Source of the DNA: Escherichia phage nithesis
Sequence record: PV252060.1
Direction: 5' to 3' (one strand)
DNA: 64,000 nt
The notes beneath the pieces are model-generated. The model made no database searches and was not told the origin of the DNA. It saw only the letters and a program-made list of their open reading frames with translations. Positions 917 through 55,938 of this stretch are shown here, in pieces. Position 1 is the first letter of the stretch. Each line of letters starts with the position of its first letter. The position numbers were made by a program, and so were the translations under genes.

Positions 917-1161
917 AAAGAAAGGTAGAGTTAGTACCTAACTGGAAAAGATGTTGGAAGTGGGCATCCATTCAGATTAGTACATTTGGTTTAATTCTGT
1001 TCTCTGCTGTAGATATTATCCAACCAATGCTGACTGGGTTACCCCGTCACATCCTGGAAGATATTCCCCATGGTTCCAATATTGCAATTGCACTGTTTGC
1101 CTTAAACATCATAGGCAGATTGATACGATTCCGTCCAAAGGAAGATTCACATGAAAGCTAA
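901..1161 (+). CDS. putative holin, two predicted transmembrane helices
   Basis: Internal ATG at 901 of the 835..1161 ORF (835 is GTG); hydrophobic segments ISTFGLILFSAVDII and IAIALFALNIIGRLI; directly upstream of endolysin. Confidence 0.4.
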   Translation: MVRRLKRKVELVPNWKRCWKWASIQISTFGLILFSAVDIIQPMLTGLPRHILEDIPHGSNIAIALFALNIIGRLIRFRPKEDSHES

Positions 1162-1786
1162 ACAAAAACTTGCTGCGAAAGGTGGTGCAGTGGGAGGAGT
1201 TGTCGCTGCTATCCTGGGGGCAGTGTTCTATATGGAAGGGGGATATGTAAACAATCCTCGTGACCCAGGTGGGGAAACTAATCATGGTATTACCCATGCA
1301 GTAGCTAAGTCTCACAAAGAAATTCTGGCCACTGAATACGGTTGGGATGGTTCTATGAAAGGTTTATCTAAAGAGATGGCTGCTGAGATATATATTGATG
1401 ACTACGTACTTAAGCCTAACTTCGTATCCTTCGCTGATATATCTCCTGCTGTAACACATAAGCTGGTAGATGCTGGTGTTAACACTGGTGTAACCCGTCC
1501 TGCTAAGTGGTTGCAGTTATCTCTTAATGAAATGTCCCGTAATGGCAAAGACTACCCTAAAATACAGGTTGATGGTAAAGTCGGTACAAGTACTGTTAAT
1601 GCATATAAAGCATTACAGAAAAAACGAGGCAAAGTTGCAGCATGTCAGGTAATGATTAAGTTACTTGATGCCAAACAACTGAACCACTACACCTCATTAA
1701 ACATGCCAGACTTTACGTATGGTTGGGTAGCTAACCGAATAGGCAATGTGCCACTGGAGGCATGTAATGAAGATGCTAATCTCTAA
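1151..1786 (+). CDS. endolysin, GH108-like N-acetylmuramidase with N-terminal SAR-like hydrophobic segment
   Basis: EGGYVNNPRDPGGETNHGIT motif typical of GH108 muramidases; N-terminal GGAVGGVVAAILGAVFY; AAGGAAG ribosome-binding site before ATG. Confidence 0.6.
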   Translation: MKAKQKLAAKGGAVGGVVAAILGAVFYMEGGYVNNPRDPGGETNHGITHAVAKSHKEILATEYGWDGSMKGLSKEMAAEIYIDDYVLKPNFVSFADISPAVTHKLVDAGVNTGVTRPAKWLQLSLNEMSRNGKDYPKIQVDGKVGTSTVNAYKALQKKRGKVAACQVMIKLLDAKQLNHYTSLNMPDFTYGWVANRIGNVPLEACNEDANL

Positions 1787-2273
1787 AGGTTGGCCTTATC
1801 TTCTGGTGGTGGTCCTAGGGACCACCATTTACTTTTGGGGCAATTCCAATGGGCAGTCTACTGTTCAAAAGAAGTGGGATGACCAAAAGGTTGAATATCA
1901 GAAGGCAATGCAAAAATTACAGGACAAATATAATGCTCTCCAAAGAAACCATAGTTATGAAGTCGGGTTACTCACTTCCCGGTTGCAGACGGCTGAGAGT
2001 AATTACGCAAGCGAGCTTGCTCGCGTTAGCAGTGATTACGACAGCCGGATGCAACAGTCTGAAAGACGAGCATCGGTATATAAACGTCAAGCCGAAGCCG
2101 GAACCTTTGAGTGCAGAAGTCTTGCAAGCCATGCAGCCAGACTCGACAACAGTCTTGAAGAAGGCAGACGTTTGGTTGAAGAACTCAGGGCAACTGTTAG
2201 ACTCCGTGACAGCCAACTAATTGAGTTGGGTAAACAGATTCAGGCTGACCGTAAACTTTTTGAACAGGAATAA
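1746..2273 (+). CDS. i-spanin (Rz-like)
   Basis: N-terminal transmembrane segment [16 protein letters not shown] followed by long coiled-coil region; overlaps endolysin 3' end. Confidence 0.5.
1957..2220 (+). CDS. o-spanin (Rz1-like lipoprotein) embedded in another frame of the Rz gene
   Basis: Alternate-frame ORF inside 1746..2273; lipoprotein-like signal [22 protein letters not shown] then Pro-rich mature part; start codon not certain. Confidence 0.45.
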   Translation: MKSGYSLPGCRRLRVITQASLLALAVITTAGCNSLKDEHRYINVKPKPEPLSAEVLQAMQPDSTTVLKKADVWLKNSGQLLDSVTAN

Positions 2274-2275
2274 CT

Positions 2276-4546
2276 ATGGAACACCAAGACACTTTTAAGC
2301 CTTTACCAGACCCAGCTCAATCAGAGAAGTTAACGGACTGGAAAAAAGAACCAAGTATCCAATTACTGAAAGGTGATTTGGAATCAGCTAAACCTGCTCA
2401 CGATGCAATCATGGCTCAGATTCGTGAGTGGAATGACCTGATGGAAGTCAAAGGCAAAGCTAAACCCCCAAAGGTTAAAGGGCGTTCTCAAGTTCAGCCT
2501 AGACTGGTTCGCCGTCAGGCTGAGTGGCGTTATGCACCACTATCTGAACCATTCCTCTCTTCTAATAAACTCTTTAAAGTAACTCCTGTTACTTTTGAAG
2601 ATGAGTTAGCTGCACGACAGAATGAATTAGTTCTTAACTACCAATTCCGTACCCAGCTTAATAAAGTAAAGCTGGTGGATGATTACGTACATAGTGTCGT
2701 AGATGACGGTACTGGTATTGCACGTATTGGCTGGGAACGTAAGACTGTTAAGATTAAAACAGAAACCCCGGTCTTCCAGTTGTATCCAATTGAGAACCAA
2801 GAACAAGCAGATATTCTTCAGCAGGCTTTGCAGCTTCAGGCAGAGAATCCCCGTGAGTATGATGAAACAATGCCGGAAGATATTAAGGAAGCTGTTAACT
2901 ACTTCAATGAAACTGGAGAAGCCACTTATGCAATCCAGACTGGTGTTACTGAGGTAGAGGTAGAGAAAGCATTGGTTAACAGACCTACTGTTGAAATGCT
3001 TAATCCAAATAACGTAGTTATTGACCCAAGCTGTAATGGTGATTTGGATAAAGCTTTGTATGCAGTTATCTCATTTGAGACATGCAAAGCAGACCTCATG
3101 AAGAACAAAGACCGTTATCATAATCTGGATAAGATTGACTGGGAAAGTTCCAGTCCTATGACTGACCCAGACCATGAAAGTAAAACTCCTGGTGACTTCC
3201 AGTTTAAGGATGCACTTCGTAAGAAAGTAATTGCTTATGAATACTGGGGATTTTACGACATCAACGATGATGGCTCACTGGAACCAATTGTAGCTACCTG
3301 GATTGGTTCTACTCTTATTCGCATGGAAAAGAATCCATTCCCGGATGGTAAGTTGCCTTTGGTAGTTGTTCCTTATATGCCTCGTAAACGCGAACTCTAC
3401 GGTGAAGCTGATGCTGAATTGTTAGGAGATAACCAAGCAATTCTTGGTGCAACTATGCGTGGGATGATTGACCTGTTAGGTCGAAGTGCAAATGGGCAAC
3501 GTGGTTATCCTAAGGGGATGTTAGATACCCTAAACCGACGTCGATATGATGATGGTCAAGACTATGAGTATAACCCAATGCAGGGCAATCCTAGTCAGGC
3601 CATTATGGAACATAAGTTCCCTGAGTTACCTCAGTCGGCAATAGTAATGACTCAGATGCAGAACCAGGAAGCTGAAGCACTAACTGGTGTTAAAGCATTC
3701 TCTGGTGGTGTAACTGGTGCAGCTTACGGAGATGTGGCTGCTGGTATTCGTGGTGCACTCGATGCAGCATCCAAACGTGAGATGGCAATCCTTCGTCGGT
3801 TAGCTAAGGGTATGGCAGACATTGGTACTAAGATTTGTGCAATGAATGCTGTGTTCTTATCTGAGAAAGAAGTAGTACGTATTACTAATGAGCAATATGT
3901 AGAAATTAACCGTGAAGACCTTAAAGGTAATTTCGATATTGAAGTTGATATTAATACTGCTGAAATTGATAACCAGAAATCTCAAGATTTGAGCTTCATG
4001 GTTCAAACGTTAGGTAATACAGTTGACCAGACTATTACTTTATCTCTTGTAGCTAAGATTGCAGAACTCAAACGCATGCCTGACCTTGCACATGAATTAC
4101 GTACCTGGAAACCACAACCAGACCCTATGGAAGAACAGCTTAAGCAATTGGCAATTCAGAAAGCACAGCTTGAGAATGAAGAGTTGAAAAGTAAGATTGC
4201 ACTCAATAATGCTAAGGCTAAAGAGGCTATTTCTAGTGGTGATCTTAAAGACCTGGATTATCTGGAACAGGAATCTGGTACTAAACATGCTCGTGATATG
4301 GAAAAACAAAAAGCACAATCTCAAGGAAACCAGAACCTTCAGATAACTAAGGCGTTGACAACACCTACTAAAGAAGGTGAAACTACCCCCAACATATCTG
4401 CTGCTGTCGGATATAACGCTTTGACTAACGGGAACTCTTTACAGGAACGTGACTTAGCTGCACAGCAAGACCCGACTTATTCACTTAGTTCCCAGTATTA
4501 TGACCCTAGCCAAGACCCAGCATCGGCTCTTGGTATGAACTTATAA
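2276..4546 (+). CDS. portal protein (N4 gp59-like)
   Basis: 756 aa, size and position relative to capsid gene match N4-like portal; acidic C-terminus. Confidence 0.6.
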
Positions 4547-6160: not shown

Positions 6161-7363
6161 ATGTTAAACTATAACGCTCCAATTGACGGTCAGAAATCTA
6201 GCATTGATGGTGCTGGTTCCGACCAGATGAATACCTATTACTGGCTGAAAAAGGCTATTATTCAGTCCCGTAAAGACCAATATTTCATGCCTCTGGCTAA
6301 CACCGTTAACATGCCGAAGAACTACGGTAAGACTGTTAAGGTGTACGAGTACGTTCCTCTGCTTGACGATAAGAACATTAACGATCAGGGTATTGATGCT
6401 AACGGTGCTACCATAGTTAACGGTAACCTGTACGGTTCTTCCAAAGACGTTGGTAACATCACCTCTAAACTGCCTCTGCTGTCAGAGAACGGTGGTCGTG
6501 TTAACCGTGTAGGCTTTACTCGTCTGGCTCGTGAAGGTTCTATTCATAAGTTCGGTTTCTTCTACGAATTTACTCAAGAATCTCTGGACTTTGATTCTGA
6601 CGACCAACTTAAAGAACACCTGTCTCGTGAACTGATGAACGGTGCTGTACAGTTGACTGAAGCTGTTCTCCAGAAAGACCTGCTGGCTGCTGCTGGTACT
6701 GTACTGTATGCAGGTGCTGCTGTTTCTGATGCTACCATCACTGGTGAAGGTTCTACCCCGTCTGTAGTTTCTTATAAGAACCTGATGCGTCTTGACCAGA
6801 TTCTTACTGAGAACCGTACTCCGACCCAGACTACTATCATCACTGGTTCTAAACTGACTGATACCAAAGTACTTGGTGGTACTCGTGTAATGTACGTTGG
6901 TTCTGAACTGGTTCCAGAACTGAAAGCGATGAAAGACCTGTTTGGTAATAAAGCATTCATCGAAGTTCAGCACTATGCTGATGCTGGTACACTGATGAAT
7001 GGTGAAATTGGTTGTATTGATAAGTTCCGTATTATCCAGGTTCCAGAGATGCTGCATTGGGCAGGTGCTGGTGCACAGGTTACTACTAACCCGGGTTACC
7101 GTACCACTATGGTATCTGGTCAGGAGCACTACGACGTATTCCCGATGCTGGTAGTTGGTGATGATTCCTTCTCTACCATTGGCTTCCAGACTGATGGTAA
7201 GTCTGTTAAGTTCACCATCATGACTAAGATGCCTGGTAAAGAAACTGCTGACCGTAATGACCCGTATGGTGAGACTGGCTTCAGTTCTATCAAGTGGTAC
7301 TATGGTATCCTGGTTAAACGCCCAGAACGTCTGGCTCTGATTAAGACTGTTGCTCCTCTGTAA
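6161..7363 (+). CDS. major capsid protein (N4 gp56-like)
   Basis: 400 aa, size and order as in N4-like phages; followed by a stem-loop. Confidence 0.6.
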
Positions 7364-7380
7364 TAGTCCGAAATAAAACA

Positions 7381-7400
7381 AGGGGGACATAAGTCCCCCT
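7381..7400 (+). terminator. stem-loop after capsid gene (weak intrinsic terminator)
   Basis: agggggac-ataa-gtccccct perfect 8-bp stem, short T-containing tail. Confidence 0.4.
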
Positions 7401-7430
7401 CTTAATAAAACTAAATGAACTACAGGAAAT

Positions 7431-8069
7431 ATGAACATGAGCATTAACGATAAACCGACCACTGACGTAGAAGTGAACGTACAGGGCAACGAAGATACCG
7501 TTAACGATATTGCAATGCCTAGCGAACTTGAAGTTCTTAAGCAACGAGCAACGTTGATGAATATCAAGTTCTCTAACAACATTTCCGTTGAGAAGCTTCG
7601 TGAGAAGATTGAAGCTGCACAAGTAAAAGATGAACCAGTAGTAGAAGCTACTGTTAACCCATTGGGTGCTAATCAGGAAGCCGGTGTTAAGAAGATGACC
7701 CTGGGTCAGAAGATTCGTGCAGAACAGACTCGACTGATTCGTGTACGTATTCAGAACCTTGACCCTAAGAAGAAAGACCTCCCGGGTGAGATTATCACCG
7801 TAGCTAACGAATACATGGGTACTGTACGTAAGTTTGTTCCGTTCGGTGAAGTAACCGACAATGGTTATCATATTCCGTACTGTATCTACGAGTTCCTTAA
7901 AGAGCGTAAGTTCATTAACATTACTACCCGTAAAGGTAAGAATGGCTTACCTGACATCCGTGCAACAGAAGCACGAGAGTTCTCCATTGAAGTACTGCCT
8001 CCGTTGACAGAAGCTGAATTAGCTCAACTGGCTCAAGCACAGATTGCTGCTGGTAGCCTTAACGATTAA
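7431..8069 (+). CDS. hypothetical virion protein
   Basis: 212-aa ORF in structural array. Confidence 0.4.
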   Translation: MNMSINDKPTTDVEVNVQGNEDTVNDIAMPSELEVLKQRATLMNIKFSNNISVEKLREKIEAAQVKDEPVVEATVNPLGANQEAGVKKMTLGQKIRAEQTRLIRVRIQNLDPKKKDLPGEIITVANEYMGTVRKFVPFGEVTDNGYHIPYCIYEFLKERKFINITTRKGKNGLPDIRATEAREFSIEVLPPLTEAELAQLAQAQIAAGSLND

Positions 8070-14067: not shown

Positions 14068-14095
14068 AATAAAGCCCCATCCGGGGCTTTTCTCT
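14068..14095 (+). terminator. rho-independent terminator
   Basis: aaagcccc-atcc-ggggcttt stem-loop followed by tctctt. Confidence 0.55.
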
Positions 14096-14139: not shown

Positions 14140-17100
14140 TTGAACAGGAATCATGCTATGTCAACATTTGACCGTCTGGCAGGTTTCGCAGACAGCATCA
14201 CTACTGCTAAGCAAGTCGATGTCTCTACTGCAACCTCTCGGAAACAAGCTGAACAAGGGCAAAACCCTTTCCAATTAACTCCTCAGAATGCCTACCAATT
14301 ACAGGCAGGTCGTGCTGGTAACTTAGGTGCTGGTGCATTTGACCTAGGTTCTATTCAGGCAGATTTTACTAATGCCTCTCCTCTTGAAATCATAAACAAA
14401 TATGGCAATGAGCAAGGAATGGACATTCTCAATGCCCGTGTCAATGCAGCTAATGCTGTTCGTCGTGATTTAACTAAGAGTCGTACATATGGTGAAGCAC
14501 TTGGTGATACCCTCTCTGGTGTTGGTCTTGGTGTTGCTAATACCCTTGGGGGCATTGCTGCTCTTGGTACAGGTTTGGTCAATGATAATGCCGGGGCATC
14601 CATTGCTTCCGGTCTTGACTGGTTAAACAAAGGTGTACACAACCTACAGTCTGATGCATTGAATGCTCGTCGTAATGTAGTACAGAACCAGAACGTAATA
14701 TCTGCACAGGAAAATGAGAAACTCTATAAGCAAGATGTTGCTAAAGGAGAAAGTGAACTCGTTGCATCCTTATCTCGTATTGGTCGTGATGCTTATGATT
14801 CTGTTGCTAATACTTTGTCCAATGGCATGGCTGCTACAGATGGACTGGCTGAGGGTGTTGGTTCTCTGTTTACTGGTGGCCCACTTATCCGTGGTGTATC
14901 TGCGCTCGGTAAAGTAATGGTAGGTGGTGATAAAGCTGTTAAGGGTATTACCCTAGCTGCTGAGTTAGGTTCACGTCCTGCACGTACTGCATTAGCTACT
15001 GGTCATGTTGCTGCACCTGCTATAGCAATTGGTGGTATGGAAGCTGGTGGTGCATACCAACAGACTGCTAATGAAATTATGGAAATGCCATTCAGTGAGT
15101 TGGCTGCTAAATCTCCAGTATACCAACAGCATATTAAAGATGGTTTATCTCCTGAAGAAGCACGTCGTCAGACTGCATCTGAAACAGGTATCACTGCTGC
15201 TGGCTTAACTGCTCCGGTTGCTGCTCTTACTGGTCCACTGGTATCCAAGTTTGAACTTAATCCACTTAAAGTAGGTTCATTGGCTGGTGCTGGTTCTAAC
15301 ATGCTGCGTGAGACTGTAGAAGAAGGTATCCAGTCTGGTACAAGTCAGTTTGCACAGAACAAAGCAATTCAGGGTAATGTAGATGCTAATCGTGATTTGC
15401 TTAAAGGTGTGGGTGAACAAACTGGTCTTGGTGCATTGTATGGCTTTGGTTCTGCTGGAGTTGCTCAAGCTCCTGGTGCAACTGTTAAGGCTGCTGGTGC
15501 TGCCGTTGGTCCTGCTGTACGTACTACCCTGGCTGGTGCTTCTCTGGCTGGTAAGGCATTAGTAAAAGCTGCCTCCCCTATTACTAACATTCTGGTTCAA
15601 CGTGGGGAAGAAATAGCCAAACGTAATGAACAAGCATCCCCTGTATCAGATGCTACGGTTAACGCTGCTGCACAAGAAGCTACTGCTCAGGCAGAACAAG
15701 CACAAGCAATTGTTCAGGAAGCAGTAGATGCAATGGATATTTCTCCTGAAGAGAAAGCTGCTGCTACTCAGTATGCTGCTGACTTAACTCAGGCGATGAA
15801 GTTCGACCCAGTAGAACTGGAACAAGCTAGTCCTGCAATCCATGAAGCTGTTTCTGGTTCCACTAACCGTGTTGAAGCTATTCAGAAGATGGCTGACTTG
15901 GTTAATACTGCTGAAGACCCTAATGTTCAAATGGAAGCTGCAATCCAGATGTATGACAACATCATGTCTATGGATAGCTTCATTAACCGTGACCCAGGTG
16001 CATTAGCTAATCTGGAACAAGGTTCTCCTGCTGCTAATATTGTTGACCAGTTCTCTGGTCTGATGGCTAACGTTCAGAATACACCAAAGGTACTTCGTGC
16101 ATTCCGTGCTATTCATTCTATGATTCAGGAACAGGCTGAAGCAGGTAAACTGAAAGCTACTGAGGAAGCCAACCAAGCTCAGGCAAACAATATTGCTATG
16201 GCTGCTGATATGTCTCCAGAAGTACTGGATGCAGATTCAGTGAACATGGTTCTGAAACATGCAAGTGAAGGTAAGATTACACTGGGGAATCGTCAGCGTG
16301 CTGCCCTGCAATCTGCTGCTGCTCTATTGCAAGGAGCACGAGAATTTGACGCTAAAGCAGAAGAACTAGGCTTACGTCCTCAAGACATTGTTAGTAAACA
16401 GATTAAAACCGACGAATCTCGTTCTAATGAAGGCCAGTACTCTGCGTTGCAACATGCTAAACGCATTCGTTCTGCGTACAACTCTGGTAACTTCGATTTG
16501 GCTTCCGCTTATCTCGACGACTTTATGAAGTTCGCCCAGCACATGCAGAATAAGGTCGGAGCGTTGAATGAGCATCTGATTTCTGGGAATGCGGATAAGA
16601 ATAAGTCTGTCCATTATCAGGCTCTTACTCCCTCCCGTGAATGGGTACGTAGTCGTACTGGCCTCGGTATCAATCCGTATGATACCAAGTCTGTTAAGTT
16701 TGCCCAGCAAGTAGGACTGGAAGCCAAGACCGTAGCTGATATTGCTAACGCACTTGCTACGGCTTACCCGGAGCTTAATGTTTCTCATGTGAAAGTTACC
16801 CCATTGGATTCACGTCTGAACAAGCCTGCTGCCCAGGTAGTTAAAGAGTTCCGTCAGGGCAATCTTGATGCTGCTCAATCCCAACAGACCAATGAACCAG
16901 TGAATCAGGTTGATGAAACTCCTGTTACGAAACAGGAACCAGTTACCCCTACTGTACAGACTAAACCCTCTGTTAGTGAAGCTGTTAAAACAGAACCTAC
17001 TATTAAAGAGTCTAAACCACAGACTGTAAAAGAACCTGAGAATCAGTCTGAAAAACAGGATGTCATCGAGAAGTCTACTGAATCTGAAAGGGATACTTAT

Positions 17101-20100
17101 GTGAAAGAGAATACTATTTCACAGGAAACCCTTAATAAGTATGGCGACCGTAAAGAGAGTCCTTGGCTCTTCGCAGATGGTACTGTTGTTGGTTCTAATG
17201 GTGACCATATCAGTCTGTCCGATGTGTTTGGGCATGATGGTTATCGCGATATGTCTATGGACACTGGTGCTGTTCGCTCTACCTTCTACAAAGGAAGTGA
17301 GCAACCATTTGTATCATTGCAACTGTTTGATAATCAGAAGCTGACTGCTGAACAATTCAATACTGTTCAATCATTCGTAGAAGCAAACAATGCACTGATT
17401 CAGATTGGTGTAGATATGTCTGGGCGTAATACCAATAACGTTGAAAAAGAAGAAGTATCACTGGCTCAACTGAAAGCAGACTATACCGTTGGTGGTAAAC
17501 CTCTATCGGAAATGGAAACAGTGTTCCCTGTCTATAACAATGACAAAACACCGAACCAGTTCCTTAAAGCATTTTCTCTGCCAGAAGAACCTAAGTCCCG
17601 TACCATTGGTTCTGAGTCTCCTTTGACTGATGTTAAGAAAGCACTGTCTTCTGCTGCTCGCTTTGAAGCATTCACTCAAAAAGAAAATAACGCTCTCACA
17701 AATGATGTGATTAAGCGTTATCAGGACTTGTTTGATTTTGGTGAAACTTTGAAGACTACTCTGTCTGACCGTCTGGCTAAGTTCCTTGCTAACAAGAACG
17801 TTGGTAAACGTTTTGTAGAAGGTACTGAGGCTAACCGTTGGGTAGGTGGTAAGTTACTTAACATCGTTGAGAAAGATGGTGATACCTTTAAGTTCAATGA
17901 CCAGTTGTTAGAGACTGCTGTACTTGCTGGTCTGCAATGGCGATTAACTGCTACACAGAATGCTGCTGTTAAAGACGTGAAAGACGTAGCTGCTATTACT
18001 GGTGTAGAAGCATCTCTGCTACCAGAAGGCATTTTGGCTGACTTCGAAAATGCTCAGACATTGGTTGAAGCTACTAACTCACTGGCTCAAAAGATTGAAT
18101 CTTATTGGGGTTTAAATCGTAATCCTAATGCACCACTGGGTTATACCAAGGGTATCCCAATGGCAATGGCTACAGAGATTCTGTCTTCTCTCATTGAAAT
18201 GGGTGAAGTTAAAGAGTCCATGCTGGATGTATCTGAGATTGACCCAGAATCTAACAAGACTGTTGGTCTGTATACCATTGAGAAGTTAGATGATAACGAT
18301 GCCATTAACAAATTCCCTACTGCTATTGAAGAAGCTGTTCTCGTAGAACCAGTAGAGAAATTGTACCTGGGTGATGATATTCCTTCCGTGGCTCAAACTC
18401 AGTTACGTAACCCGGCTGTTAAGAATACCCCGGAACAGAAAGCTGCTCTTAAAGCTGAGCAGGCTACTGAGTTCCGTGTACATATGCCGATGGTTAACTT
18501 CTACGAAGCATTAGGTCGCGACAATATTCTGGAATTGATGGGTGCTGGTGCTCTTAATCCAGAATTGTTGAATGTGAATACTGCTAAGTCTCTGGAAGGT
18601 AAAAACCTGTCAGTGTCTATGGCATATGATTCTTTGTTTGGTGTAATCAACCAGATTAAGGAACAAGAGAATGGTCTGGATACACCTATTCACTACGGTT
18701 ACAACATGACCCGTGTAGGTCGTATGCAGATGCTTGGTAAGAACAACCCACAGTCCAGCAAGTTGGTTCGTGAAGCAATTCTGCCAACCTTCTCTACTAT
18801 CGACTTGAGTAATGAAAACAGCCAAACGTTCTCTGATTTCCAGTTAGGTCTGGCTCAGGCATTGGGTATCAAAGTTCATAAAATGTCCCGTGAAGTTATG
18901 TCAGATGAGCTGACTAAAGCTCTGGAAGGTAAACTGAAGCCTGCTGTTGATATGATGGTTGAGTTTGATAAGTCTGGACACTTACCTACCAATGCAGTGG
19001 ATATTCTGAAGACTTCTTTGGGAAGCGATAAATCATTCGTAGCTCTTATGGCTCTTATGGAATATGCCCGTTATCTGAATAGTGATGACCGTGCCAACTT
19101 TAATACCCCACTGTACGTTGAAGCCGATGGTGTAACCAATGGGCCAATCAACGCAATGGTATTAATGACTGGTGGTAAGTTCACATCAGACTGGATTAAG
19201 AATACTGCTAAGGGGGGTTTGTTCTTTGGTAAAGCTGGCAAGACTATGAACGAGCATCATTCGCATGAGGACAGTGTTGACCTGTATGAAGCATCCACTA
19301 ATAATCTACAACAGGCACTGAATGAATTACGCAATACTTACCGTAACAACGTTCCTGTTATGAACCAGATGAATCATCTCCAGAAATTAATGGATTTGTT
19401 CATTAAAGACTTCAATCTTAATGAAGATGGTACTCTGGACCTGAAACGTGGTATTGCTAAAAACCCACTGACTATTACCATCTATGGTTCTGGTGCTCGT
19501 GGTATTGCAGGCAAGATGGTTAGTGCAATTACTGATGTCATCTATGAACGCTTTAGTGACGTTCTGCAAGCTCGTGCTGCTGACCCTAGCATTTCTCCAG
19601 CTATGGCTATGTTTGGTAAGGAGGCTGCGTCTGAGGCCGATGCTCAGGCTATGCTGGATACTTTCCTTACTTCTATGGAAGCACTGACTGGTAATGTTCC
19701 GGTTATGCGTAAAGGGGAGTTGTCTATTCAACAAGTAGAAGGTGCTCTGACTGGTAAGTTAAATCCCCAGAAGTTTACTGTATCTGGGAATGCTCTGAAG
19801 AACTTGCAGGAGAATATGCTCCATCTGTTCGTTGAACCAATGCGTACTGGTATCCGAAATACTGTTGGTGAGGGTTTGATGCATTCTACTGAGAATTTGC
19901 AGAAGGCTACTCAGATTCAATCTCTGGTATTGCAGGATATGTTCCAGCAAGCAGTACAGGCTAAGCTGGCAGAAAAAGAAAAAGACCCAACGTGGAAAAA
20001 GGGTGATTTCTTAACACAGAAAGAACTGAATGAAATCCAGAATAGCTTAGCTCCACTGGCTCCAATGATTGAGACTGGTTCACAAACTTTTTATATTGCA

Positions 20101-55885: not shown

Positions 55886-55938
55886 CGCTTATTCTCCTAA
55901 ATGTGATTAATAACCAAAAGCTGCGGAGCAGCTATTAC

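Follow-up and report, generated by a model that had tools for sequence, protein, structure and literature searches.

A G7C-like virion RNA polymerase gene with an optional folded module in Escherichia phage nithesis

The virion RNA polymerase (vRNAP, gp50) of phage N4 is carried in the virion and enters the host by ejection, and its promoters are single-stranded DNA hairpins (PMC13434306). A full-length structure of the enzyme was published in 2026 (PMC13434306, PMC13492108). According to this work, the N-terminal domain (NTD) inserts into the membrane and is required for genome injection, and the C-terminal domain (CTD), resolved by cryo-electron microscopy (cryo-EM), is an autoinhibitory module containing an HExxH subdomain (PMC13434306, PMC13492108); roles of the CTD in autoinhibition and encapsidation have been described (PMC13434306, PMC13492108, PMC5512222). 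N4-like vRNAPs had already been classed as polyvalent proteins by Iyer, Burroughs, Anand, de Souza and Aravind in 2017, always fused to a zincin-like metallopeptidase (MPTase) and sometimes to ART, lysozyme or PBECR domains (PMC5512222). Here we describe a giant open reading frame (ORF) of this kind, located at 14140..24912 on the + strand of a stretch of 64,000 nucleotides (nt) from Escherichia phage nithesis (PV252060.1), which we refer to as the window.

With very high confidence, this ORF encodes the virion-encapsidated, single-subunit, DNA-dependent RNA polymerase, that is, the gp50 orthologue, of a G7C-like Gamaleyavirus (Schitoviridae). The gene is of an already known kind and nearly identical to annotated database entries; as a vRNAP it adds nothing new, being one more G7C-like orthologue of a well-studied phage enzyme. 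The value of the analysis lies in a firm identification of the replicon, a corrected start codon and a domain map. A folded module in the first linker of the protein is a modest, testable lead and no discovery.

Homology and domain organization of the polymerase

A phmmer search against the sequences in the PDB gave E=0 both to full-length N4 gp50 (9PNR, 9PNQ, 11GP and others) and to every mini-vRNAP structure, 2PO4, 3C2P and 3Q0A included. The match to N4 gp50 scored 5083 bits and fell into two stretches, amino acids (aa) 1-991 and 1132-3583. When aligned with MAFFT, the proteins were colinear, with 67.6% aa identity to N4 gp50 over 3463 columns and 90% to G7C gp50. PHROG 2206, 'virion RNA polymerase', covers the protein from end to end (aa 25-3583), and four Pfam vRNAP families (PF21867, PF21624, PF21894 and PF21769) matched with E values of 1e-26 to 1e-101, all far above the gathering score. 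The family names found were vRNAP_dom_2, vRNAP_plug, N4_RNAP_helical and vRNAP_dom, and only these vRNAP-specific families were matched.

In nucleotide sequence, the gene shows about 94% identity to annotated vRNAP genes, which are present in 50 or more phage records. Identities of 92-94% over the whole gene were obtained with the Escherichia phages HK2, ShWW44, PD205, ECBP1, St11Ph5 and Bp4, and the identity to the gene of vB_EcoP_G7C is 88.7%. All of these phages belong to the Schitoviridae, subfamily Enquatrovirinae, genus Gamaleyavirus. In several of the related records PP514361 (HK2), ON922919 (PD205), MZ394712 (U1G) and JX415535 (ECBP1), the gene is mislabelled 'DNA polymerase' or 'gram positive anchor domain protein'; the second of these names probably stems from the P/T/E/K-rich linker of the protein.

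Domain limits, all given on the + strand, were taken from the two 2026 cryo-EM papers on N4 (PMC13434306, PMC13492108). The NTD comprises aa 1-901 (14158..16860; N4 residues 1-906) and is 60.5% identical to the N4 NTD. It is followed by linker 1, from aa 902 to about 1128 (16861 to ~17541), which was delimited by alignment with the N4 linker (residues 907-1006) and begins with a low-complexity part rich in P, T, E, K and Q (aa 902-975, 16861..17082). The ratio of nonsynonymous to synonymous substitution rates (dN/dS) of this part is 0.33, the highest in the gene. The Pol (mini-vRNAP) domain, supported by Pfam and PDB matches, occupies aa ~1129-2205 (17542..20772) and shares 71.7% identity with N4 Pol. 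A short linker 2 separates it from the CTD (aa 2217-3584, 20806..24909), which is 70.1% identical to the N4 CTD.

The catalytic residues R1522, D1657, R1764, K1768, Y1776 and D2049 are identical to those of N4, as is their local sequence context. They correspond in the mini-vRNAP to R424 (T/DxxGR), D559 (motif A), R666, K670 and Y678 (motif B), and D951 (motif C), a motif numbering that reportedly goes back to Kazmierczak et al. 2002 and that we verified against the N4 sequence. Residue W129 of N4, which reads the -11G of the promoter hairpin, is conserved as W1228. The salt bridge that clasps Pol to the CTD in N4, D2012-R2279, is likewise kept as D2113-R2364. In the C1 subdomain of the CTD the HExxH motif is retained as HELVH (aa 2318-2322, nt 21109-21123); the Pfam scan of the vRNAP protein matched no peptidase model, and the HELVH motif is the one piece of evidence here for a zincin-like MPTase.

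A preliminary description of this DNA, made from the letters and a list of ORFs, had taken the ORF for an N4-type vRNAP and had proposed alignment to N4 gp50 and its mini-vRNAP, as well as domain prediction, as ways to check this. Both bear it out, the alignment with E=0 and colinearity and the domain prediction with four Pfam vRNAP families far above cutoff, and a lack of similarity to any vRNAP central domain is ruled out. The expectation that the central domain carries the single-subunit RNA polymerase motifs is borne out by the conservation of all catalytic residues. The replicon is indeed N4-like, although more precisely it is that of a G7C-like Gamaleyavirus than of N4 itself. The view that the terminal domains are poorly understood has been partly superseded by the 2026 cryo-EM work, in which the CTD was resolved and the NTD was found to be membrane-inserting (PMC13434306, PMC13492108).

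An optional folded module in linker 1

Colinearity with N4 is interrupted solely in linker 1, where the protein of phage nithesis has about 118-138 extra residues. They contain a folded module of about 128 aa (aa 985-1112, 17110..17493, + strand), which lies within a cassette of about 440 nt (~17064-17505). In the vRNAP gene of phage PW8, which encodes 3452 aa, about 45 nt stand in place of 17064-17505, a clean cassette-type indel; the PW8 gene is 94% identical to the present one in nucleotide sequence overall and about 97% in the flanks of the cassette. Phage AN24P2, whose match spans only 96% of the gene and which is not among the module matches, may lack the module too. A tblastn search located the module segment in 28 phage records, all of them Gamaleyavirus vRNAPs, at 90-96% identity. 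Since about 56 records carry the vRNAP gene at no less than 80% nucleotide identity, roughly half of the genus would be without the module. A limited literature check yielded no prior description of indels in the g50 linker of G7C-like phages.

An AlphaFold2 prediction made with a 19-sequence alignment returned a compact alpha/beta structure with a predicted local distance difference test (pLDDT) score of 95 and a predicted template modelling (pTM) score of 0.89. The module is under strong purifying selection: its dN/dS between this phage and G7C is 0.059, lower than that of Pol (0.128) and far lower than that of the low-complexity part of the linker. Its sequence is characterized by the motif SPWLxADG...GDH...TGAxR...QxLTxxQ, and eight residues, S1001, P1002, L1004, G1008, D1016, H1017, R1040 and Q1066, are invariant across the module family.

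A second insert, of about 136 aa and unrelated to the module, is located just upstream of it in the vRNAP of G7C (aa 965-1100). It was found only in G7C and in Shigella phage B2 (OM858838, 28202-28522; 75.7% identity), which suggests that optional inserts have a hot spot in linker 1, and it gave one weak PHROG match, to a helix-turn-helix (HTH) family (E 0.03).

The family to which the module belongs came to light through an exhaustive phmmer search of 1.84 billion representative sequences, which gave 21 matches; the other homologue searches contributed one match each, a 277-aa vRNAP fragment and a 166-aa solo protein. One homologue (P0015) is a second, divergent vRNAP, recognized by the Pfam family N4_RNAP_helical, in which the module likewise precedes the polymerase. 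Others lie in giant proteins together with SLT, SNF2-like helicase or methyltransferase (MTase), ddrB-ParB, LPD22, LPD38 or LPD39 domains, and one in a TrwC relaxase protein. Identity among the homologues falls to about 24-36% across these unrelated host proteins, which correspond to the injected polyvalent proteins of phages and conjugative elements treated by Iyer et al. 2017.

The solo homologue (P0012) is encoded on a phage-like metagenome contig (ERZ23491061 scaffold_4375, 7294-7794). It adjoins a 585-aa ParB_N/HTH_ParB protein, and a Prok-Ub/Prok-E2/JAB/ThiF cluster, a DNA polymerase III beta clamp and a PolB exonuclease are encoded nearby; this neighbourhood offered no clear functional clue.

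Comparison of the module with described families gave negative results throughout. The isolated module had no Pfam match at E<=10 and none in PHROGs or NCBIfam, and the 19 family members showed no consistent Pfam match at E<=1. In 10 full-length homologues no Pfam family covered the module region (7 scanned at E<=0.01 and 3 at E<=0.001), and a profile of the module searched against PDB sequences gave noise only (E>=0.05). The module is also unlike the models of LPD and other polyvalent domains (LPD1-40, DarA-N, YodL, ArdA and others) that are deposited in Pfam, with which it was compared. Folds of the gelsolin/ADF-H type and restriction-endonuclease-like folds (Hjc, splicing endonuclease) were also considered for the module, which bears a faint resemblance to gelsolin.

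The reading that we prefer, if only tentatively, is that the module is a passenger or accessory domain that enters the cell along with the polymerase as infection begins. A wider proposal, which we hold to be rather doubtful, is that in Enquatrovirinae vRNAPs linker 1 serves as a site for cassettes and swaps small folded passengers, with none in N4 and PW8, one here and two in G7C and B2. The module would then found an undescribed family, possibly with a new fold. Carried into recipient cells by polyvalent proteins of phages and conjugative elements, such domains would either work against a host defence or attach to a host structure during the first seconds of entry.

The main rival is that the module is a structural 'bead' or spacer with no activity of its own, one that adjusts how long the linker is, how the protein packs in the capsid or how it threads through the tail channel. 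We regard this as possible, though not probable. In N4, linker 1 is a flexible tether of about 100 residues in a beads-on-a-string chain (PMC13434306), and zero, one or two inserts are tolerated there among the relatives, as a spacer would allow. A pure spacer, however, would not be expected to evolve under a dN/dS below that of the polymerase core, nor to retain eight residues unchanged, with D, H, R and Q among them, in relaxases and MTase-helicase proteins at about 24-36% identity; the existence of a 166-aa solo version speaks against it as well.

A selfish origin of the cassette, as an intein or homing element either removed from the mature protein by splicing or of no relevance to it, is very improbable. 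Its presence or absence among near-identical genes fits such an origin, and homing-endonuclease insertions are known in the polymerase genes g16 and g39 of G7C-like phages (bioRxiv 10.1101/542787). Nevertheless, the cassette is in frame, matches no endonuclease or Hint/intein family and has no intein-like junction residues; the module forms a compact 128-aa alpha/beta domain, strongly constrained by purifying selection, that many unrelated proteins carry internally like any other domain. We have therefore rejected this explanation.

If the module is indeed an injected accessory or anti-defence domain, near-isogenic natural pairs with and without it, such as this phage and PW8, offer a ready test. 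Such pairs could reveal what the passengers of polyvalent proteins do and how much folded cargo the vRNAP ejection pathway tolerates.

Gene boundaries, genome context and candidate promoters

The interval 14140..24912 on the + strand holds exactly one ORF, of 3590 codons when counted from TTG 14140, and its translation is uninterrupted by stops; because stops make up about 3/64 of codons and the frame is so long, it is not a chance event. The true start is almost certainly ATG 14158, the first in-frame ATG, which is preceded by AGGA at 14146-14149. From this codon the protein has 3584 aa and begins with MSTFDRLAGFADS, as do N4 and G7C gp50. Given the AGGA and this shared N-terminus, 3584 aa is the most likely length, and the coding sequence of the gp50 orthologue runs from 14158 to 24912 (+), stop codon included. 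The gene also holds ORFs on the - strand, such as 24340..24864 and 16372..16788, which were taken as shadow ORFs.

Both flanks of the gene carry strongly folding hairpins. The upstream one (14071..14090, + strand), an intrinsic terminator by fold and sequence, separates the gp51 homologue from the vRNAP gene; it has a GCCCC/GGGGC stem and a folding energy of -13.1 kcal/mol (z -4.8 against shuffles), and the U-rich tract UUUUCUCUU follows. One might speculate that it cuts read-through into the vRNAP gene, whose product may be needed in about 4 copies per virion. The 60-nt gap there contained no detectable sigma-70-like promoter. Downstream, a bidirectional terminator hairpin at 24918..24941 (both strands) folds with -19.9 kcal/mol on the + strand and -20.5 on the - strand (z -5.5 and -6.1) and has the better U-run on the - strand. 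GC skew switches sign at this site, where late (+) and middle (-) transcription converge. The G7C record has terminators annotated at the homologous flanking positions, on both strands in the case of the downstream site.

Further along, another bidirectional terminator-like hairpin was observed at 25398-25420. ARAGORN predicted a tRNA-Ile (anticodon AAT) at 26093-26167 (-) and an adjoining tRNA-like gene at 26173-26248 (-) with an abnormal two-base anticodon loop, both in an ORF-poor stretch between the convergent terminator and gp47-like genes.

Upstream of the vRNAP gene, the + strand encodes homologues of the portal, the major head protein, gp53, gp52 and gp51, and the - strand of the window encodes SSB, rIIB, rIIA and the two RNAPII subunits. 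The late-operon order gp53-gp52-gp51-gp50, followed by a convergent terminator, is the same as in the annotations of G7C and N4, according to PHROG matches of the three upstream ORFs. The preliminary description had placed a single 10.8-kb ORF between intrinsic terminators at the end of a structural module, together with a split RNAPII, SSB and rIIA/rIIB in N4 order. We found one ORF with both hairpins and the homologues in place; the ORF is as giant as was described, and only its length of 3590 aa gives way to the probable 3584.

For N4 promoter P1 the template ...GTCCATAAGTTGCGAAGCAACGTGTAACGTGTA... has been given (PMC13434306). Its literal hairpin core, TTGCGAAGCAA, was not found in the window. 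The relaxed pattern GCGRAGC gave five matches in the window, three of them on the + strand at 55.9-61.6 kb; this strand is the template for the - strand early genes. These three candidate vRNAP promoters each consist of a 6-bp stem with a GGA loop and share the conserved 5' flank CCA(T/A)AA. The first, AGCTGC-GGA-GCAGCT (55919..55933, +), lies upstream of the homologue of the small RNAPII subunit, gp15 (-). The second, AGACGC-GGA-GCGTCT (60745..60759, +), lies upstream of ORF 60228..60701 (-), which fits G7C gp2 by length and position only, and the third, ACATGC-GGA-GCATGT (61558..61572, +), precedes ORF 61192..61515 (-), which in the same way, by length and position only, fits G7C gp1. The flanks of the third hairpin, TCCATAA...GTGTAACGTGTA, are nearly identical to those of N4 P1. 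As judged from these positions, the candidate hairpins, each immediately upstream of its ORF, appear to precede the early-gene set that the N4 vRNAP reportedly transcribes. Together with the conserved polymerase, they indicate that the enzyme and its template signals are probably both present.

ORFs on the - strand run on past the gp1-like ORF and the left-most promoter, through 61600-64000, where the genome end and terminal repeat of G7C fall. Probably either the assembly behind the window is circularly permuted or was opened at a different point, or the phage has additional early genes.

The chance that the ORF encodes a merely structural or decayed ejection protein, devoid of polymerase activity, is negligible. 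No evidence in favour of this was found, and the catalytic and promoter-recognition residues are all identical to those of N4, the Pol domain has a dN/dS of 0.128 and the cognate hairpin promoters are kept.

The present analysis itself shows the homology, the order of domains, the residues for catalysis and promoter reading, the synteny and the hairpin promoters; packaging, ejection, autoinhibition and transcription are carried over from experiments on N4. By analogy, the CTD would mediate the packaging of a few vRNAP copies into the capsid. Upon adsorption, the enzyme would thread as a 'beads-on-a-string' chain of loosely linked subdomains through the ~30-35 Å channel formed by the tail, gp51 and gp52 (PMC13434306, PMC13492108), and the NTD would insert into the membrane. 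Before promoter engagement and its own release, the CTD would keep the motif-B loop in the active site. The promoters would be single-stranded hairpins extruded, in a gyrase-dependent manner, from the supercoiled genome end, and the polymerase would transcribe the early genes (gp1, gp2, gp15 and gp16), helping to draw in the DNA and starting the cascade.

Comparison with known systems

The vRNAP of phage nithesis shares with N4 gp50 (YP_950528; PDB 2PO4, 3C2P, 9PNR, 9PNQ) the order NTD, linker 1, Pol, linker 2 and CTD, the catalytic residues, the tryptophan equivalent to W129, the HExxH motif and the D-R clasp, as well as the flanking genes and the type of hairpin promoter. It differs in its folded module of about 128 aa, which N4 gp50 lacks, the N4 linker (907-1006) having been described as purely low-complexity. 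The promoters differ in the loop, which is GAA in N4 P1 and GGA in all three candidates here.

Among the Gamaleyavirus vRNAPs (G7C gp50 AEL79661, ECBP1, HK2, ShWW44, Bp4, pSb-1 and others), nucleotide identity is 88.7-94.4% over 98-100% of the gene. These proteins are alike in having the same linker-1 module in 28 records; they differ in the second insert of G7C and B2 and in the absence of the module from PW8.

With T7-like single-subunit RNA polymerases the protein would share the right-hand fold and the motifs T/DxxGR, A, B and C, as established for the N4 mini-vRNAP in literature that PMC13492108 cites. The Pfam scan of the vRNAP gave no detectable T7-type RNA_pol match. In contrast to the T7-like enzymes, the vRNAP is about four times larger and, as in N4, would be packaged in the virion and use hairpin promoters of single-stranded DNA.

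Finally, the protein resembles the polyvalent proteins (PMC5512222) in being large and multidomain and in carrying an HExxH motif, and its linker-1 module recurs in the company of LPD22, LPD38, LPD39, SLT, ddrB-ParB, MTase and TrwC.

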